64,000 bases of DNA from Candidatus Latescibacterota bacterium (GTDB lineage: Bacteria > Latescibacterota > UBA2968 > GCA-2709665): NCBI GenBank assembly GCA_965237675.1, contig OZ250150.1, positions 1,344,001 to 1,408,000 of the forward strand. The letters run 5' to 3'. Position numbers and translations under genes: made by a program. Shown piece by piece: positions 16,453 through 27,940 of this stretch; the first letter of the stretch is position 1; every line of letters begins with the position of its first letter. The notes under the pieces are model-generated. The model was not told where the DNA came from, did not search any database, and was given only the letters and a program-made list of their open reading frames with translations.

Positions 16453-17634
16453 ATGTCCGGGAAACGCCAGGAAGAACGATTCCAGACCACCGACGTGATG
16501 ATGCTTTCCGGCGGGCACGCCGTGCATGACACGTACAGCGGATTTCTTGCGCCCCTGTTACCGGTCTTTATTCAGACCCTGTCTTTGACCAAAACCGAGG
16601 CAGGCATGCTGATGGTGGTCAGGCAGGCGCCGTCCGTGTTTCAGCCGATTGTCGGGCTTCGGGCGGACCGCTCGAATCTGCGCGCCCTCGTCATTCTCGG
16701 ACCCGCCGTCACGGGCATCGCGATGAGTCTGCTCGGCGTGGCCGGTGGGTACGCGACTCTCGTAGCCCTCCTGGTAATCGTCGGCTTCAGTTCGGCCGCT
16801 TTTCACGCGGTTGGACCGGCAATGGCCGGAACACTCTCAGGACCGAATCTGGGTCGCGGCATGGGAATCTGGATGTTGTGCGGTGAACTCGGCCGCACGA
16901 TGGGGCCGATTCTGATCGTGAGCGTCATCGGCCTGTGGGGCGTCGCCGGAACAGCCTATCTTCTCCCCGTGGGCATTGTGGCCTCGCTCGTCCTGTTGTT
17001 GCGGATGAGACGCGTTGCGGCTGAGGATATGTCATTCTACAGGGCGCTGCCGTGGCGTTCCGCGCTGAAACGCATGGCGCCGGTTATGGTACCGCTGTCC
17101 GGCATCGTGTTCGTCCGCGCGTTTACAATGGCCTCCCTCACCGCATTTCTGCCCACGTTCCTGAGCGAAGAGGGCGTGAGCCTGTGGCTGGCTGGCGCGT
17201 CGCTTTCCGTACTCGAAGGCGCCGGCATCGCAGGGGCCCTTATCGGCGGATGGGCGAGCGACCGGTTGGGGCGCAAGCAGGTACTTGGCTTCTCCATGAT
17301 TGCAACACCCATCCTGTTGTTTGTTTTTCTCGAGAGCCAGGGCTGGGTCCTGTTTCCCGTCCTGGTCGTCCTGGGCTTTGTCGCGCTCGCGACCGGCCCC
17401 GTGGTTATGGCGATGGTCCAGGAGAGCTGCCCCGAAAACCGGGCATTCGCCAATGGGATCTATATGGGCGGGGGTTTCACGCTTCGGGGAGTGGCGATGT
17501 TGCTGCTGGGTATGATGGGAGACGCCTATGGCCTGCGGCGGGCGTTCGAAGTCAGCGCCGTTTTGATGTTGATCGGCGTCGCGCTGGTATTGAAGATACC
17601 GGAAAGGCGGGGAGACGGGAGACGGGAGACGTAA
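16453..17634 (+). CDS. MFS transporter (Fsr-like)
   Basis: About 12 hydrophobic segments; H-x-x-HDTY, FQPIVGLRADR, AAFHA and GGWASDRLGRK motifs. Confidence 0.88.
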   Translation: MSGKRQEERFQTTDVMMLSGGHAVHDTYSGFLAPLLPVFIQTLSLTKTEAGMLMVVRQAPSVFQPIVGLRADRSNLRALVILGPAVTGIAMSLLGVAGGYATLVALLVIVGFSSAAFHAVGPAMAGTLSGPNLGRGMGIWMLCGELGRTMGPILIVSVIGLWGVAGTAYLLPVGIVASLVLLLRMRRVAAEDMSFYRALPWRSALKRMAPVMVPLSGIVFVRAFTMASLTAFLPTFLSEEGVSLWLAGASLSVLEGAGIAGALIGGWASDRLGRKQVLGFSMIATPILLFVFLESQGWVLFPVLVVLGFVALATGPVVMAMVQESCPENRAFANGIYMGGGFTLRGVAMLLLGMMGDAYGLRRAFEVSAVLMLIGVALVLKIPERRGDGRRET

Positions 17635-18160
17635 GAGGTCCACACCCGACCGCCAAACCATTGGCGATATGGACACGTGATATATTTCGGCAGCGTACGC
17701 CTTTGTAGGGGCGACCCATGGGTCGCCCGCCTGTCCTGAAGGCGGTGAGAAGGCAGACGGTAGACGTAAGACGACCACACCCCGCCGCCGAACCAGGTTA
17801 ACGATAGGGCCTGCCGGTATCACGTCACCAATGCCCGCGCCGTAACGTGGGCAAACCTGGTGGGTTGCCCATACGAATACAACGACGGCGCGCAACGCGT
17901 CGATTTCAATATCGCGGATTTTTGTTTTGTAGGGGCGGTTCGCGAACCGCCCGCCTGTCAGCTCAACCGCCGCCTTCCCGCCCGACCTCACCCCAATGTA
18001 GTGTCCGACCGTAACGCGAACTGTTAGTTCGCGGGTTATAGTCACACGCGCGCTACGAATCTTCAGCGGTGAGCGAAACGCGGTGAGAGGGAAGACGGTA
18101 GAAGGGAGACGGTAGAGGGGAGAGGTGAGACGTGAAGGGCGAGATGTCAGAGGCGAGTAA
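17601..18160. repeat. Cluster of 7-bp-period GAGACGG/GTAAGAG arrays (17601-17638, 17738-17774, 18064-18158) and GTAG-type REPs (17705-17728, 17929-17952)
   Basis: Degenerate NNAGA(C/G)G heptamers; palindromes GTAGGGGCGACCCATGGGTCGCCC and GTAGGGGCGGTTCGCGAACCGCCC. Confidence 0.75.
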
Positions 18161-22394: not shown

Positions 22395-22460
22395 GAACTG
22401 GAAAGAATCGACCTGGAATGGTTGCACGCCAACGTCTCAGGGGTTGTAAAGGTAAGTCCT

Positions 22461-23909
22461 ATGGCAGAGCGAAAACCACAGAAGGACAAGGGACGGGTGT
22501 TGAAGCTGGATCAGGCAGGCGCGCCGGCCGATCGCCAGACTTCCAGTCGGGAATCGTCCGAGGGAACGTCAGACTCCGTTGGCGGAGATAGACCGATGCC
22601 CGGTTTCGTGGGTGCCGGTACCTCGGCGTCTGAAGGGGCACGCCAGAAAACGATCCCTGGCACGGACCGCAAACTCGAAAAGAAATTTTGGAAGCCGAAA
22701 CGCATCCTGAGCGTTGGCGCGGTCGCGGCATTTGTGGGACTGGTCCTCTATATGGCCATTTTTGGAGACCACAGCGCCAGGCTCAACGTGCAGGTCGAGC
22801 GAATTACGATTGCGGAAGTCACCCGCGGCCCCTTCCAGGAATTCATTCCCCAGCGCGGCACCGTGATGCCCATTCAGTCGCACTACCTGGATGCGCTGGA
22901 AGGCGGGCAGGTGGAGGAGATATTCCTTGAAGAGGGGGCAATGGTAGAAAAAGGCACGCGGATCTTGCGCATGTCGAACCCATCCCTGGAACAGACCGTA
23001 TTGAGCCAGGAAGCGCAGTTGTTCGAGCAGATCAACAGAATGGAAAACACCCGATTGAGCCAGGAGATACAGGATATCCAGCGCAAGCGTTCCCTGATGG
23101 ACATCGAACTGGACCTGCAGAAATCCGAGCGCGATTTTCGGAAACAGAAAGCGCTATTCGAAAACAAATTCGCCTCGAGAGACGAATTTGAAGAGGCAAG
23201 AGACAAATACGGACACGCGCAGAAGCTTAAGGTGTTCATGCTGGAGACCTTGCGGCGCGACTCCCTCTATCGAATCAATGAACTGGCTGCCCTGCAGAAG
23301 CGCGCATGGAGCCTGCAGCTCCAACTGGATGACGTGCGTCGCCCGCTGAGGAATCTGATCGTCCGCGCGCCGATCGACGGTCAACTTTCGCAACTCAACG
23401 CCGAGATCGGCAAGTTGATCGCGAAGGGGACCAGCATTGGCCAGATCGACGTTCTGGACGCTTACAAGATGCGTGCGGCTATCGATGAATTCTACATTAC
23501 CAGAATCACGACTGGGCTGAAAGGGACGATTGAAATTGACGATGAGACGTATGAGTTGAAGATCCGTCGGGTTTTCCCCGAGGTAAAGGAGGGCCAGTTC
23601 GAGGTCGATATGGATTTCACAGGCGAGGCGCCTCAGAGCATTCGTCGCGGCCAGACGGAGCAGATTCGGCTGGAGTTGGACGCGCCCGAAGAAGCGTTAT
23701 TGCTGCCGCGGGGCGCGTTCTATCAGACCACGGGCGGCAACTGGGTCTTCGTGGTCGAGGGCGACCTGGCCGTGCGGCGCCAGGTTCGCATCGGACGCCA
23801 GAATCCCGAGTACTTTGAAGTGCTCGAGGGCCTGTCCCCAGGGGAACGGGTGGTGACCTCGTCGTACGAAAATTATGAAGAAATCGATAAATTGGTCTTA
23901 CAGCGGTAA
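22461..23909 (+). CDS. MacA/HlyD-family periplasmic adaptor (membrane fusion protein)
   Basis: N-terminal TM segment, biotinyl-lipoyl halves (EGGQVEEIFLEEG; VRAPIDGQL), coiled coil, and GRQNPEYFEVLEGL. Confidence 0.92.
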   Translation: MAERKPQKDKGRVLKLDQAGAPADRQTSSRESSEGTSDSVGGDRPMPGFVGAGTSASEGARQKTIPGTDRKLEKKFWKPKRILSVGAVAAFVGLVLYMAIFGDHSARLNVQVERITIAEVTRGPFQEFIPQRGTVMPIQSHYLDALEGGQVEEIFLEEGAMVEKGTRILRMSNPSLEQTVLSQEAQLFEQINRMENTRLSQEIQDIQRKRSLMDIELDLQKSERDFRKQKALFENKFASRDEFEEARDKYGHAQKLKVFMLETLRRDSLYRINELAALQKRAWSLQLQLDDVRRPLRNLIVRAPIDGQLSQLNAEIGKLIAKGTSIGQIDVLDAYKMRAAIDEFYITRITTGLKGTIEIDDETYELKIRRVFPEVKEGQFEVDMDFTGEAPQSIRRGQTEQIRLELDAPEEALLLPRGAFYQTTGGNWVFVVEGDLAVRRQVRIGRQNPEYFEVLEGLSPGERVVTSSYENYEEIDKLVLQR

Positions 23910-23992
23910 GAGGTGAGAAGGAAGACGTAAGAGGATGGAAGTCTCGCCACTTTGTTCGGCGCTAAAGTCAAATGGGATAGAGCCAAAACACG

Positions 23993-24352
23993 ATGTTGAA
24001 TCTCAGCCACAAAAAGCTTGAAGCATGGAAAATGAGTATTGATCTGGTGAACGAGATTTATACTTTGACCTCTGAATTTCCTTCCACCGAAATCTATGGC
24101 ATTACCAGCCAGTTACGTCGGTCTGCTGTCTCAATACCGTCTAACATCGCCGAGGGATCAGCGAGATCTTCGAATACTGAACGCAGAAGATTTCTCGAAA
24201 TAGCCAGGAGTTCGCTGGTTGAGTTGGATACTCAACTTGAAATTGCACTAAACCTCCAATTGTGTTCGGACGATGACGTTCAATCAATATCAGAAACGAT
24301 GAATCGTTTGTTTGGTTTACTCTCAGGATTGATTAGTAGAGTTTCCTCGTAA
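23993..24352 (+). CDS. Four helix bundle protein (23S rRNA intervening-sequence protein / bAvd-like family)
   Basis: FPSTEIYGITSQLRRSAVSIPSNIAEG and FLEIARSSLVELDTQL signatures; lower GC than neighbours. Confidence 0.93.
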   Translation: MLNLSHKKLEAWKMSIDLVNEIYTLTSEFPSTEIYGITSQLRRSAVSIPSNIAEGSARSSNTERRRFLEIARSSLVELDTQLEIALNLQLCSDDDVQSISETMNRLFGLLSGLISRVSS

Positions 24353-24401
24353 CCCGTGCCGATTCGTTAGCCATTTTTGTTACGGCCAATAAAACGAACG
24401 G

Positions 24402-25120
24402 GCACTCATATCCTCTCCCGTCTAACGTCTTCCGTCTAACTTCGGTAAGAGGTGAGCCGGGAGACGGCAGTGGAAAAACCTTGCCACCGGATGCGGCGCC
24501 AGAGCGAGAAGGGATAGCGCCAAGACACGATGCTGATTTTCAGCCAAATTGCGTTACTGCCAGGACTGACAAATAGGGTTTCGTCGTAATCCGTGCTGAA
24601 AACTCAGCCAATGTCTTTTGCGACTTTTGAGACGATAATGCACTCATATCCTCTCCCGTCTCCCGTCTAACGTCTACCCTTTCATCAGGCACTCATATCC
24701 TCTCCCGTCTCCCGTCTAACGTCTACCCTTTCATCAGGCACTCATATCCTCTCCCGTCTCCCGTCTAACGTCTACCCTTTCATCAGGCACTCATATCCTC
24801 TCCCGTCCAACGTCTTCCGTCTAACTTCGGTAAGAGGTGAGCCGGGAGACGGCAGTGGAAAAACCTTGCCACCGGATGCGGCGCCAGAGCGAGAAGGGAT
24901 AGCGCCAAGACACGATGCTGATTTTCAGCCAAATTGCGTTACTGTCAGGACTGACAAATAGGGTTTCGTCGTAATCCGTGCCGAAAACTCAGCCAATGTC
25001 TTTTGCGACTTTTGAGACGATAAGGTACTCACATCATCTCCCGTCTCCCGTCTAACGTCTACCCTTTCATAAGGCACTCACATCATCTCCCGTCTCCCGT
25101 CTAACGTCTTCCGTCTACCC
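24402..25120 (+). repeat. Complex repeat: two copies (period 385 bp) of an internally deleted four-helix-bundle cassette, plus three exact 49-bp tandem units (24640-24786)
   Basis: The 49-mer GCACTCATATCCTCTCCCGTCTCCCGTCTAACGTCTACCCTTTCATCAG occurs three times; mini-ORFs at 24530-24589 and 24915-24974. Confidence 0.9.
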
Positions 25121-25140
25121 TTTTTAAAAGGAGCTCCAAG

Positions 25141-25830
25141 ATGATCAAAACGGTTAATCTACAGAAAGTCTACCGAACGGAAGAAGTCGAAACGACCGCG
25201 CTTCGGAATGTCAATCTGGAGATTAGCGAAGGCGAGTTCGTGGCGGTGATGGGCCCCTCGGGTTGCGGCAAGTCCACGCTTCTGAACGTGCTGGGGCTGT
25301 TGGATAACCCGACGGATGGGGAATACTATCTGAACGACGTGGAGGTGTCGAAACACACGGAGCGGCAGAGAGCGGACACCCGGAAAGAGAATATCGGATT
25401 CGTGTTTCAGAGTTTCAATCTGATCGACGAACTGACCGTGGCCGAGAATATCGAACTGCCGCTGCTGTACCTGAAGATGCCGTCCAAAGAACGCAGGAAG
25501 CGCGTGGATGAGTCGATGGAGTATATGGGCATCAAGCACAGGGAGAAACACTTCCCGCAGCAGTTGTCGGGCGGCCAGCAGCAGCGGGTGGCCGTGGCGC
25601 GGGCGGTCATTTCGAATCCGAAAATGATCCTTGCGGATGAGCCCACGGGGAATCTGGACTCCGCCAACGGCAATGAAGTGATGGGATTGTTGACGGAATT
25701 GAACAAGAACGGGACGACCATCGTGATGGTGACGCACAAAGCCCACGATGCGGGATATGCCCATCGCGTCGTTCACCTGTTCGACGGCCACGTGGTGACC
25801 GAGAATATCAAGGAGCAAGCGCCGAATTAA
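25141..25830 (+). CDS. ABC transporter ATP-binding protein (LolD/MacB type)
   Basis: Walker A GPSGCGKST, LSGGQQQR, Walker B ILADEPTGNLD, and VTH switch. Confidence 0.96.
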   Translation: MIKTVNLQKVYRTEEVETTALRNVNLEISEGEFVAVMGPSGCGKSTLLNVLGLLDNPTDGEYYLNDVEVSKHTERQRADTRKENIGFVFQSFNLIDELTVAENIELPLLYLKMPSKERRKRVDESMEYMGIKHREKHFPQQLSGGQQQRVAVARAVISNPKMILADEPTGNLDSANGNEVMGLLTELNKNGTTIVMVTHKAHDAGYAHRVVHLFDGHVVTENIKEQAPN

Positions 25831-25971
25831 CCGCAGCGCGACGATAGAACGGGGGTCGAAACCGGGTACCTGACCCGAGTCCGGGGGGTTTACTCGTTAC
25901 TCCCCATTTTTCTGTCGCCGCTCATCTCGCCCGTGCCCGCCCGTATTCCTCCGACAGCGACGTTCCCGTCC

Positions 25972-26934
25972 CTACAACGTTCCCTGGTGCCCGGCGCGGA
26001 TGGCCTCGCACAGGCGCATGGTCTGTACGGCGTCGTCCAGGGTTGACCATGGCTCGCGGTCTTCCAGAATGCAGTCGACGAAGTGGACGATCTCGTTGTA
26101 GCCGGACCCGCCCACGGCCTCGATCTCATCGCCCTCCAGTGAAAAAGCCTCGCCCTGATCATAGCCCTCTACTTGCGGCGCCCTTGTCAGATCGAGATAA
26201 ACCGAAAGGTCTTCGCCGTGTACCTCAGCCCACTGGATGCGATAACCCACGCCATAGTGGCTCATCAAAACGCCGAAGGCGCCCGTATCGAAGCGCACCA
26301 CGGCGTTGTGGCGGTGGCATCCGGGGCGCTCGCCATCCTGCACTATCCCCCGCACCTCCACCGGTACGGCCGCTTCCTCGGGGCTGGGACCCGCCAACCA
26401 GCGGATCAGGTCCACGTGGTGAATGGCGTCGCAGATCACCGGATCCGGCGTTGCGGCCTTAAACCGGGTTACCCGTTTGTTGTACGTGGCCGCGACGTGT
26501 ACCGCGCCCCCGCCCGCCTGGATACGCCGCCGGACGGCCAGCACGTGAGGATAGTATCTCCGGTTGAACGATACGATGGCCTTGCCCGTGCTGCGCCGGG
26601 CGGCGTGCGCCATCTGCTCGGTCTCATCGGTGTTCATCCCGGGCGACTTCTCCACCGACGTGTGAATACCGCGTTCCAGGCAATCCAGCACGATGGGCAG
26701 CAGATGACCGGGGTCCGTGACGACGTACACGAGATCCGGCCGGCACGCGTCGAGCATCTGCCGGTAGTCCGTAGAGGCCAGGTCCGGCGCCCATTCCGCC
26801 CTGTTTTTTCGGAGACGCTCCCCGTCGAGTTCCGCGATGCCCGCCAGCTGAAGGCGTGGCTCGTCGGCAATCATCTTGAAATGCGACTGGGCGTGCCCGC
26901 CACAGCCGATAACCGCGGCTTTCAGATCAGTCAT
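25972..26934 (-). CDS. Gfo/Idh/MocA-family oxidoreductase
   Basis: VIGCGGHA, EKSP, FNRRY and AIHHVD motifs. Confidence 0.9.
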   Translation of the reverse strand: MTDLKAAVIGCGGHAQSHFKMIADEPRLQLAGIAELDGERLRKNRAEWAPDLASTDYRQMLDACRPDLVYVVTDPGHLLPIVLDCLERGIHTSVEKSPGMNTDETEQMAHAARRSTGKAIVSFNRRYYPHVLAVRRRIQAGGGAVHVAATYNKRVTRFKAATPDPVICDAIHHVDLIRWLAGPSPEEAAVPVEVRGIVQDGERPGCHRHNAVVRFDTGAFGVLMSHYGVGYRIQWAEVHGEDLSVYLDLTRAPQVEGYDQGEAFSLEGDEIEAVGGSGYNEIVHFVDCILEDREPWSTLDDAVQTMRLCEAIRAGHQGTL

Positions 26935-27006
26935 GGTGAATTCCTTTCAAGGAGGGTAGACGGAAGAAGGAAATAGATAAGAAAGAAAAACGCGAAGATG
27001 TATAAC

Positions 27007-27650
27007 CTACCCCACCCCCTAACGTCCCCTATTCCCTTGCCCTTTTTCGAAGGGCCGGGAGACGGAAGAGGTAAGACGGTAGAGGAAAAACCTTGCCACC
27101 TGATGCGGCGCCAAGCCAAAAAGGATAGCGCCGGAACGCCATATTGAAACATGTGCGCCATGGTCTTGAGATTGACACAACAGCGTTTCCACGTGACCCG
27201 TGCCTATTCAGTAGCCATAGTTGAGTCCACTCCGAAAAGTGAGATTCGCGTGATTTTCTTCCAATTTGGATCAGGAACGGCCATTTTCAATAAAAGCTAT
27301 ATCCCCATAAATCATTATATATAATAGTGTTATATCAAGTATGATTTCGATTTACTTCTGAGTGAAACACCAACTTGGACCTCGTCAGAGAGGATTTTGA
27401 CTTTTCGGAGGAGACTCATAGTTGTTACGGCAAATTAAACGACCAGGCACTCATATCGTCTCACTTCTTCCGTCTAACGTCTCACTGCCTTTAGAAGAAG
27501 GGCGCCGCTCGGCGCGGGGCCGGTTTTTCCGTGAATTTCCTCAGTAGTGGAATTGGAAATCGGGTGGCCTATGAGCCCTCCAGGAGCTGCCGGTGTACGG
27601 AGATTTACGGAATAACACGGAAAAACCCCCCGCTCCACCTCCGTCCGGTC
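27007..27650 (+). repeat. Structured dispersed repeat ('element X', copy D), interrupted at ~27049-27496 by a heptamer-bounded cassette remnant
   Basis: The left arm CCCCACCCCCTAACGTCCCCTATTCCCTTGCCCTTTTTC and right arm AAGAAGGGCGCCGCTCGGCGCGGGGCCGGTTTTTCCGTG...CACGGAAAAACCCCC both match the uninterrupted copies. Confidence 0.8.
27223..27417. mobile_element. 195-bp MITE with 18-bp TIRs and a 6-bp TSD
   Basis: TIRs GAGTCCACTCCGAAAAGT / ACTTTTCGGAGGAGACTC (2 mismatches); ATAGTT duplicated at 27217-27222 and 27418-27423; AT-rich non-coding core. Confidence 0.85.
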
Positions 27651-27940
27651 ATTAGTTATTCCTTGAAGTTCTGGCGAGCGGAATGGCGCTTGTACCGCTC
27701 TTTGCTGTATGCCGATAGTTATCTGCCAAATGCTGACCGCTGATCGCTCCTCACCCCCAGGAAACCACACCGTTCTCTAACACGATGCCTCTTGAGAGGA
27801 CTACCAGAGCAGGGCGCGTTTTTCCGTCCCGCTCCAAATTACGATTTCCTCCGTGGTTGGCAGGGCAGCGGATTGGGTGGGTCCCGTGAAGTAATTCGCG
27901 CCATGCATAAAACAGGCCCCGCGCCCAGCGGCGACTATTG

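Follow-up and report, generated by a model that had tools for sequence, protein, structure and literature searches.

This study concerns a repeat-filled spacer in an efflux-pump operon of Candidatus Latescibacterota bacterium, analysed within a window of 64,000 nucleotides that corresponds to C1:1344001–1408000 of genome G000 (5.6 Mb); the congeneric genomes used for comparison are designated G001 onward. The spacer, of ~1.2 kb, lies between the gene for an HlyD-family membrane-fusion (adaptor) protein and that for an ABC-transporter ATPase, consists of repeats throughout and is flanked by genes that are all on the + strand. It contains an intact gene of the four-helix-bundle family PF05635 (TIGR02436), bracketed by inverted arrays of 7-nt words (the arms), together with two internally deleted, gene-less copies of such a cassette, which are referred to here as minis. 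The cluster fits closely between its neighbours: the TAA stop of the HlyD gene (23907–23909) falls within heptamer 1 of the 5' arm, and the AAGGAG of the ATPase gene stands directly 3' of the last heptamer. The features of the locus are collected in Table 1.

Table 1. Features of the HlyD–ATPase spacer and its surroundings, in positions of the window
Feature	Position	Strand	Remarks
HlyD-family membrane-fusion (adaptor) gene	22422–23909	+	PF13437, E 4.2e-14
Cassette cluster	23905–25120		one intact PF05635 gene and two internally deleted copies
5' arm of the intact cassette	23905–23939	+	five heptamers: GGTAAGA GGTGAGA AGGAAGA CGTAAGA GGATGGA
5' leader module	23940–23992	+	GCCAC..GGCGC..GGGATAG.GCC..CACG; direct-repeat families D7 and D8; nhmmer; alignment
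Intact type-A four-helix-bundle gene	23993–24352	+	PF05635 / TIGR02436; 119 aa
3' module	24353–24413	+	ends in the near-invariant GGCACTCAYATC; alignment of 17 copies
3' arm of the intact cassette	24411–24440	+	inverted heptamers: TCCTCTC CCGTCTA ACGTCTT CCGTCTA AC
Mini 1, lineage alpha	24444–24690	+	5' arm 24444–24474, leader, remnant open reading frame 24530–24589, 3' module, 3' arm
Tandem of a 49-nt 3'-end unit (motif and heptamers)	24640–24807	+	3.4 copies, 100% matches, family D2
Mini 2	24829–25119	+	5' arm 24829–24859, remnant open reading frame 24915–24974, two diverged 3'-end units 25025–25119
Ribosome-binding site AAGGAG	25128–25133	+
ABC-transporter ATPase gene	25141–25830	+	PF00005, E 2e-36
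Lineage-beta gene-less derivative	27040–27500	+	arms at both ends; split by an unrelated miniature inverted-repeat transposable element (MITE)
Nested MITE-like insert	27221–27424		204 bp, ~26-nt terminal inverted repeats; inverted pair I12

Members of this cassette family share one layout, namely a 5' array of 7-nt words, a leader, a promoterless PF05635 gene, a 3' module with GGCACTCAYATC and an inverted array. In the intact cassette the two arms were recovered as inverted pairs I13 and I16, which are 80–83% complementary, and the core word of the period-7 arms, GACGNNN, is inverted between them; in both the minimum-free-energy and the centroid folds of the full copy the arms pair with each other and close the element. 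The 5' leader module is retained by the gene-less copies, as seen both in nhmmer matches and in the alignment. The end motif of the 3' module, which reads GGCACTCATATCC in the sequence itself, corresponds to GGCACTCAYATC, and the latter is confined to the 3' side, where columns 71–74, 76, 77 and 79–81 of the alignment of 17 copies are invariant. Such a conserved, 3'-only end motif would fit recognition by sequence better than recognition by shape.

The 119-aa product of the intact gene matches PF05635 with an E value of 3.9e-36 (123.9 bits, cut-off 33.8) and TIGR02436 with 117.7 bits (cut-off 24), and the original prediction of an intact four-helix-bundle gene between inverted heptamer arms is thereby borne out. 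The nearest solved structure by sequence is XCC0516 (PDB 2GSC; E 2.8e-30, residues 5–115), and the type-A protein, as this class is called here, is by sequence a homologue of the pentameric 2GSC and a relative of Avd, the accessory protein of diversity-generating retroelements (DGRs); these matches agree with the earlier placement of the family among the proteins of 23S rRNA intervening sequences (IVSs) and near Avd. To our knowledge, PF05635 is a very large family without known function. The gene at 23993–24352 is the sole intact PF05635 gene in the G000 genome, and its ω (the ratio of nonsynonymous to synonymous rates) is 0.10–0.33 against seven type-A relatives; the type-A genes are judged to be under purifying selection, i.e. 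functional. A promoter scan found no σ70-like promoter on the + strand of the cassettes, and the neighbours of PF05635 genes are mostly co-oriented with them, upstream at 31 and downstream at 32 of 44 sites, although these counts come from crude calls of open reading frames (ORFs) at non-independent sites. Read-through expression is therefore likely, and the gene is most likely transcribed from the host operon. The outer heptamers of the 5' arms were also seen to be rich in TAA, TGA and TAG (23905–23932; C1:5531440–5531460; the HlyD–ATPase junctions of G002, G005 and G013); owing to the period of 7 these stop triplets cover all three frames, and at both clusters in G000 the upstream host ORFs terminate within the array.

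The remnant ORFs of the two minis comprise 19 codons each and read exactly as had been claimed for them. Minis 1 and 2 lie in a direct repeat of 300 nt (24401–24700 and 24786–25085) that is 97% identical, and the arms of mini 1 close the element when either strand is folded. Besides the exact tandem of 49-nt units, two further and diverged 49-nt units are found at 25025–25119, ahead of the ribosome-binding site of the ATPase gene. Resident copies amplify in tandem via their arms.

It is very improbable that these repeats are merely local slippage or an assembly artefact limited to the HlyD–ATPase locus. Minis 1 and 2 do form a local tandem duplication, and since short-read contigs break within repeats, the G000 assembly is the one source for mini 2 and for the count of 49-nt units. 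The passage from the gene to mini 1, or from an arm to a mini, is however bridged independently by contigs from three runs of three studies (X1 23300–24638; X3 23861–24453 and 24424–24638; X7 24417–24681). Furthermore, the minis match the flanking parts of the neighbouring full copy at only 72–73% identity, and the mini junction and sequence recur in other species and at other loci, the non-coding alpha mini of G000 being about 92–95% identical to that of G008. Chance can be set aside on the array counts: three or more consecutive words in the pattern CGTC-N3-CGTC-N3-CGTC occur 17+6 times in the G000 genome versus 1+0 times in a shuffled genome, and a second count gave 18+7 versus 1+0 for the reversed pattern. 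Among the 22 sequencing runs listed, four are RNA runs, with 7–9% of the sampled words; RNA run X18 yielded only flanks of relatives and no cassette contig, and is uninformative on expression or processing.

The internal deletions fall into two lineages, each with its own junction. Lineage alpha retains ~6 N-terminal and ~11 C-terminal codons, joined as AGCCAC|ATTG. When aligned with full genes it is found at the HlyD–ATPase junction of G000 (both minis), G008, G002 and G005; G005 and G009 hold it at a second site and G013 at a third. The sharing of this junction with G002, G005, G008, G009 and G013 supports the earlier proposal that the minis derive from a relative and not from the adjacent gene. 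In lineage beta the deletion junction lies at a TTGA microhomology, and copies occur at the HlyD–ATPase junction (three in G008, one in G012), at G006:C10, and in G000 at C1:5531720 and at window position 27056. The last of these had been described as a more decayed copy at about 27056–27496; it is indeed a gene-less derivative, but one of the second deletion lineage that has been split by the 204-bp MITE-like element. Four other copies of that element are present in G000 at 97.5–98% identity (C1:592070, 1869224, 1968566 and 4713638), and here it interrupts the beta derivative within its 3' module, with TAGT on either side of the insert. Two conserved modules, CCCCTATTCCCTTGCCCTTTTTCGA and a GC-rich hairpin followed by TTTTTCC, were seen to recur just outside the arms (window 27010–27050 and 27490–27540; C1:2334712, 2681740 and 4644391), which suggests that outer modules and arms together form a larger composite repeat.

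The flanks of the alpha and beta sites map to separate places in G000, and each deletion junction is found at at least three loci. One junction occurs at several non-homologous loci, and therefore the gene-less forms themselves have propagated. At the third alpha site ten of the 14 genomes, G000 included, are uninterrupted, three carry unrelated inserts, and an armed mini, lying antisense, is present in G013 only, so that the presence/absence polymorphism expected of a mobile family is found. The G005/G009 site has no arrays in G000, and the G006 site has the same arms in G000 around a different core. Gene-bearing and gene-less forms arrive at new intergenic sites as units.

Copies are also found well beyond the locus, as the original prediction had anticipated. 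PF05635 genes are present in 12 of 14 congeners (0–5 per genome), and mini 1 DNA has matches, as dispersed copies, in all 14. In G000 a second cluster of gene-less copies lies at C1:5531440–5532080; some of its members are shorter still, the 5' array running straight into the 3' module. About ten other hairpin elements combine these arms with different cores. Arrays of the CGTC type number from 16 to 263 per congener, a 16-fold range, versus 0–3 for the reversed-pattern control, with 16 in G012, 17 in G008, 89 in G010, 106 in G011 and 263 in G013. In G005 and G012 minis are kept and the PF05635 gene is absent from the genome. As for the GACG-armed gene-less hairpins with other cores, they were noted in the window at ~17600–17790 and 18086–18106 and elsewhere at C1:183921, 969989, 1556920, 1908885, 2334745, 2596918, 2681790 and 4644430. 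One alternative core of ~75 nt is homologous to the cassette 3' module, another of ~120 nt has ends that are themselves inverted repeats, and at two sites G000 carries an alternative core where a congener has the type-A gene or a beta mini. A separate dispersed GC-rich palindromic repeat, GTAGGGGCG..CGCCC, occurs at window ~17696–17725 and at many other sites (C1:5215760 and 2222210 among them).

The HlyD–ATPase junction was recovered in 13 of 14 congeners, the contig of G004 ending there. In every recovered junction the array begins at the adaptor stop and ends ~10 nt short of the ATPase ribosome-binding site, and what is enclosed differs from genome to genome. The type-A gene is present in three congeners (89–93% amino-acid identity) and a type-B gene, with 41–44% amino-acid identity to type A and the arm word CAGCTGA, in four; five are gene-less, G001 with type-B arms and G012, G013, G002 and G005 with type-A arms. 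In G011 a 5' arm and a 3' module with arm enclose a 3.7-kb segment that lacks a four-helix-bundle gene; this segment (L034, 1100–5000) was observed to encode an 827-aa MacB-type permease (PF12704 and PF02687) and a 161-aa ORF without a family match. By HlyD synonymous distance the type-A and type-B states are intermixed in each clade, so the junction has changed type on several occasions. In contigs from two further studies a type-B array stands immediately after an HlyD end that differs from that of the window at 16/438 and 19/611 letters, and the runs with these type-B contigs hold type-A contigs too.

The contents of the junction also differ from its surroundings in age. Measured from G000, the synonymous distance (dS) of the cassette gene is 0.10 to G008 and 0.29 to G003, where HlyD has 0.72 and 0.73; by these distances the cassettes are younger than the genes around them. 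The G000 gene is moreover a mosaic with respect to G008, with 68% identity in the leader and first 13 codons and 95–98% in the remainder, and the low-identity part is common to G000 and its nearest relative, G012. The dS contrast and the mosaic gene imply that conversion and exchange between copies and between species are frequent. Through recombination with other copies, some of them from other species, the interior of a cassette may be lost, exchanged or converted. Copies at different loci are 85–92% identical.

The reading that we favour, with a probability of about 0.6, is that the cluster belongs to a family of insertional hairpin cassettes, represented here by one intact and two old gene-less members, which moves rarely, by host-driven steps, and encodes an accessory protein. 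The mobile-like part of this reading draws support from deletion junctions that copies at different loci have in common, from insertion polymorphism, from differences in copy number and from turnover at one site, and the earlier interpretation of the locus as a mobile cassette is partly supported. As to mechanism, the arms and the 3' motif would be the parts needed in cis, because every derivative retains them; host replication or recombination functions might supply strand transfer, acting on the hairpin or on the array; and the pentameric protein may be an accessory that binds the array for specificity or maintenance, and not an enzyme.

Several observations weigh against this reading. The HlyD–ATPase junction, which had been proposed as the place to look for empty sites, is occupied in 13 of 13 assessable congeners and never empty; an uninterrupted site was found elsewhere, at the G013 insertion, but the never-empty junction fits host retention or allelic exchange through flanking homology no less well than targeted insertion. 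No pair at separate loci of the same genome exceeds 88.6% identity, and among 15 sampled loci of G013 the 50 longest matches are 66–88% identical. The number of arrays does not follow the intact type-A gene: genomes with the gene have 17, 18, 25, 27, 70, 106 and 263 arrays, and those without it 16, 20, 30, 31, 36, 37, 45 and 89. The arms are ~75% complementary (963 Watson–Crick pairs in 1275 aligned positions) with mismatches that show no strand bias, and therefore a strictly maintained stem is not shown. At the G013 insert, which is composite, no flanking target duplication is readable in comparison with G010 and G001. No reverse transcriptase (RT) stands beside the cassettes, the four RVT_1 matches in G000 being distant and all outside the window (C1:521418, 2685049, 3960074 and 4792506); three weak Y1_Tnp matches (27.6–36.6 bits; C1:1533097, 1677151 and 1781826) are not beside a cassette either, and no enzyme of movement was found in G000. 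From the lack of near-identical copies at separate loci it follows that movement is rare and that no burst has occurred recently. In behaviour the family is long-lived, seldom moves and stays at low copy number.

A rival account is that the hairpins are non-mobile intergenic modules retained by the host, such as RNase III or mRNA-stability sites within operons, that spread only by homologous recombination and by exchange among related genomes, the gene being a passenger and the minis decay products that are kept for the use of their hairpin. The junctions filled in 13 of 13 congeners, the exact fit of the arms between stop codon and ribosome-binding site, the co-orientation of neighbours (31/44 upstream, 32/44 downstream), the recombination indicated by mosaic, low-dS cassettes, and the failure to find a target-site duplication, a burst or a transposase all agree with such modules, and in the available text on the Coxiella IVS the RNA part is deemed more relevant than the protein (PMC4990558). 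The same deletion junction at non-homologous loci, however, needs some de novo insertion, as does in particular the G013 armed mini at a site that is array-free in 13 of 14 genomes; array number varies 16-fold from one congener to another, which requires explanation; cassettes also occur antisense, as the G013 mini does, and within a coding gene; and G–U pairs are not in excess on the sense strand. We regard host-retained modules as an unlikely account of the family, though one to be taken seriously.

An RNA-based mechanism of the kind raised in the original prediction received no support. G–U wobble pairs number 95 in the sense and 98 in the antisense orientation, i.e. without bias; Rfam gave no match at E values up to 1 in window 23700–27700; and RNAalifold predicted no pairs in the 3' module of the 17 copies. 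A candidate GTGCC/GGCAC stem in the 3' module was rejected, its columns being invariant and its changes uncompensated. When the arms of one element were scored against each other and against those of other elements, the values were 10.48 and 8.91, with 8 of 2000 permutations as high; 6 of the 21 elements in this set are false positives, which inflate the difference. The co-occurrence with an RT or recombinase that had been envisaged was not seen either, with no RVT_1 or Y1_Tnp match near the cassettes; the full copy has no transposase domain, and PF05635 is its only ORF. The repeats of the window consist of heptamer arrays and cassette copies only, with no template/variable pair. Two known systems were considered and rejected, a DGR remnant because there is no adjacent RT and there are no template/variable repeats, and a system of repetitive extragenic palindromes with their tyrosine transposase (REP/RAYT, forming REPIN hairpins), no Y1 transposase gene adjoining the cassettes.

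These results bear on the stronger proposal that the protein itself mobilises the element: the PF05635 pentamer would read its own 7-nt arrays as RNA or single-stranded DNA and drive copy-out and copy-in of full and mini forms, perhaps with an RT in the manner of Avd. The gene is the sole conserved cargo and is under purifying selection, gene clusters have their own heptamer words even at the same site, the minis resemble non-autonomous elements in retaining arms and end modules, homology to Avd is reported in the available text of PMC10053308, and four RVT_1 genes are present in the genome. The co-variation of word and protein is, however, equally expected if the two are co-inherited as one unit. 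Arrays are abundant without a cognate gene (89 in G010, 45 in G001), and G005 and G012 hold minis with zero PF05635 genes, so that the mobilising role earlier suggested for the protein is not supported by the distribution of arrays. PF05635 is a family without a known catalytic domain, no RT is adjacent, there are no template/variable repeats, and the wobble pairs are strand-symmetric. Mobilisation by the protein is, in our estimate, distinctly improbable.

The cassette design extends beyond this genus. In the order, 41 genomes supplied 48 distinct PF05635 genes with 94 flanks that were scored for self-similarity at period 7. The threshold was the 99th percentile of scores for 400 windows drawn at random from G000, whose 58% G+C makes it approximate for AT-rich genomes, and 66 flanks pass it; for periods 5, 6, 8 and 9 only 3–9 of 94 pass. 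Among 80 loci from many phyla, collected using an alignment of seven sequences, 85 of 157 flanks pass at period 7 and 27 of 157 at period 8, with both flanks passing at 30 of 77 loci; in some phyla the arms of PF05635 genes were noted to have a period of 8 instead of 7 (loci L074–L153). Each gene cluster has its own word, GACGGGA, CAGCTGA, GGTACCC, CAGTGGT, GAGTGAG, AAGAATT and GAAGGAA being among them.

One group of cassettes, with the word CAGTGGT, was observed to be embedded in the gene for a 906-aa DNA methyltransferase (PF01555) and to share its strand; the three cases are L001 (G010), L045 (G024) and L046 (G026). These copies have 59–77% nucleotide identity among themselves. In all three, one other frame is free of stops across the gene and 80 nt on each side (502–556 nt), whereas such an open alternative frame occurs in just 2 of 45 other PF05635 genes. 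The host methyltransferase ORF is continuous in G010 and G026, with ~155 extra codons, and two overlapping ORFs are called in G024; in the uninterrupted orthologue of G000 (C1:4244238–4246958, L157) 13 residues replace the cassette.

A broader conjecture, which we hold to be rather unlikely, is that PF05635 proteins form the subunit that reads sequence in a class of hairpin-armed cassettes not yet described, in which each subfamily would read its own 7-nt word, host or RT functions would do the copying, minis would be served in trans, and the unit would be tolerated nearly anywhere. If it were true, gaps between stop codon and ribosome-binding site, rRNA (the classical IVS) and a coding gene translated straight through would all be cassette sites. 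The locus and its congeners amount to a natural experiment: a single junction holds two types of cassette that differ in their words, two deletion lineages that can be dated have reached other loci, and genomes carry 16–263 arrays. Tests can thereby be made of recognition of the arrays by their own protein, of the agent that moves the unit and of the effect of the hairpin on operon expression. Questions about the origin and mobility of IVSs go back about 30 years, their protein family is also the commonest beside DGR RTs, and the long-noted heptamer repeats of bacteria gain a concrete genetic context.

Comparison with known systems shows where the cassettes stand. XCC0516 of Xanthomonas campestris (2GSC) is, as cited in the available text of PMC4990558, a homopentamer of four-helix bundles; it offers a structure only, without a known function or nucleic-acid partner. 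Avd of DGRs (PDB 4DWL) has a homologous pentameric four-helix-bundle fold, and PF05635 is the commonest Pfam family beside DGR RTs, according to the part of PMC10053308 that was available; the cassette gene differs in being bracketed by heptamer arrays, with no adjacent RT and no template/variable pair. The TAACTGA heptamers of Beggiatoaceae, cyanobacteria and Bacteroidetes, which are mostly direct and intergenic repeats, resemble the present arrays in that they lie near start codons, run over the 3' ends of preceding ORFs and are rich in stop codons; the sections of that account available to us (PMC4679880) make no mention of an IVS or four-helix-bundle protein, whereas here a PF05635 gene, or what is left of one, stands between two arrays in inverted orientation. 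Bacterial MITEs and REPINs share with the cassettes inverted ends, internal deletions with shared junctions, dispersed intergenic copies, insertion polymorphism and a copy number that varies strongly among relatives. The full-length cassette differs from them in having no known transposase or RAYT and no target-site duplication that was seen; the copies are few and old (66–92% alike) without a burst, and the ends are arrays of 7-nt words and not unique inverted repeats.

Excision by RNase III is the defining behaviour of IVSs. The closest likeness of the cassettes is to the IVSs of 23S rRNA in Coxiella and Leptospira, in which an S23p/PF05635 gene lies in the loop of a stem of terminal inverted repeats and tandem heptamers precede the ORF, as five do here at 23905–23939. 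As described in the available text of PMC4990558, the IVS of Coxiella burnetii has a 28-bp terminal stem and an S23p ORF preceded by three tandem GACAGAT heptamers, RNase III cuts at the first repeat, the number of repeats is strain-variable and the ORF of one strain has lost 176 bp internally; that IVSs arose as mobile elements is cited there as an old idea. The PF05635 family has also been found in rRNA insertions of bacteria of the candidate phyla radiation (PMC11270868). IVSs occupy 23S helix 25 or 45, whereas the present cassettes lie between the HlyD and ABC ATPase genes of an efflux operon, form tandem clusters and have gene-less derivatives at further loci. Full-text searches of the literature turned up no description of PF05635 cassettes with heptamer arms at sites other than rRNA, nor any of their gene-less derivatives, and to that extent the family is new as the original prediction had held, but its design is shared with the ORF-bearing rRNA IVS as far as the latter is described in PMC4990558. 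The element is accordingly best classed with the IVSs, as a variant that lies outside rRNA and has MITE-like derivatives.

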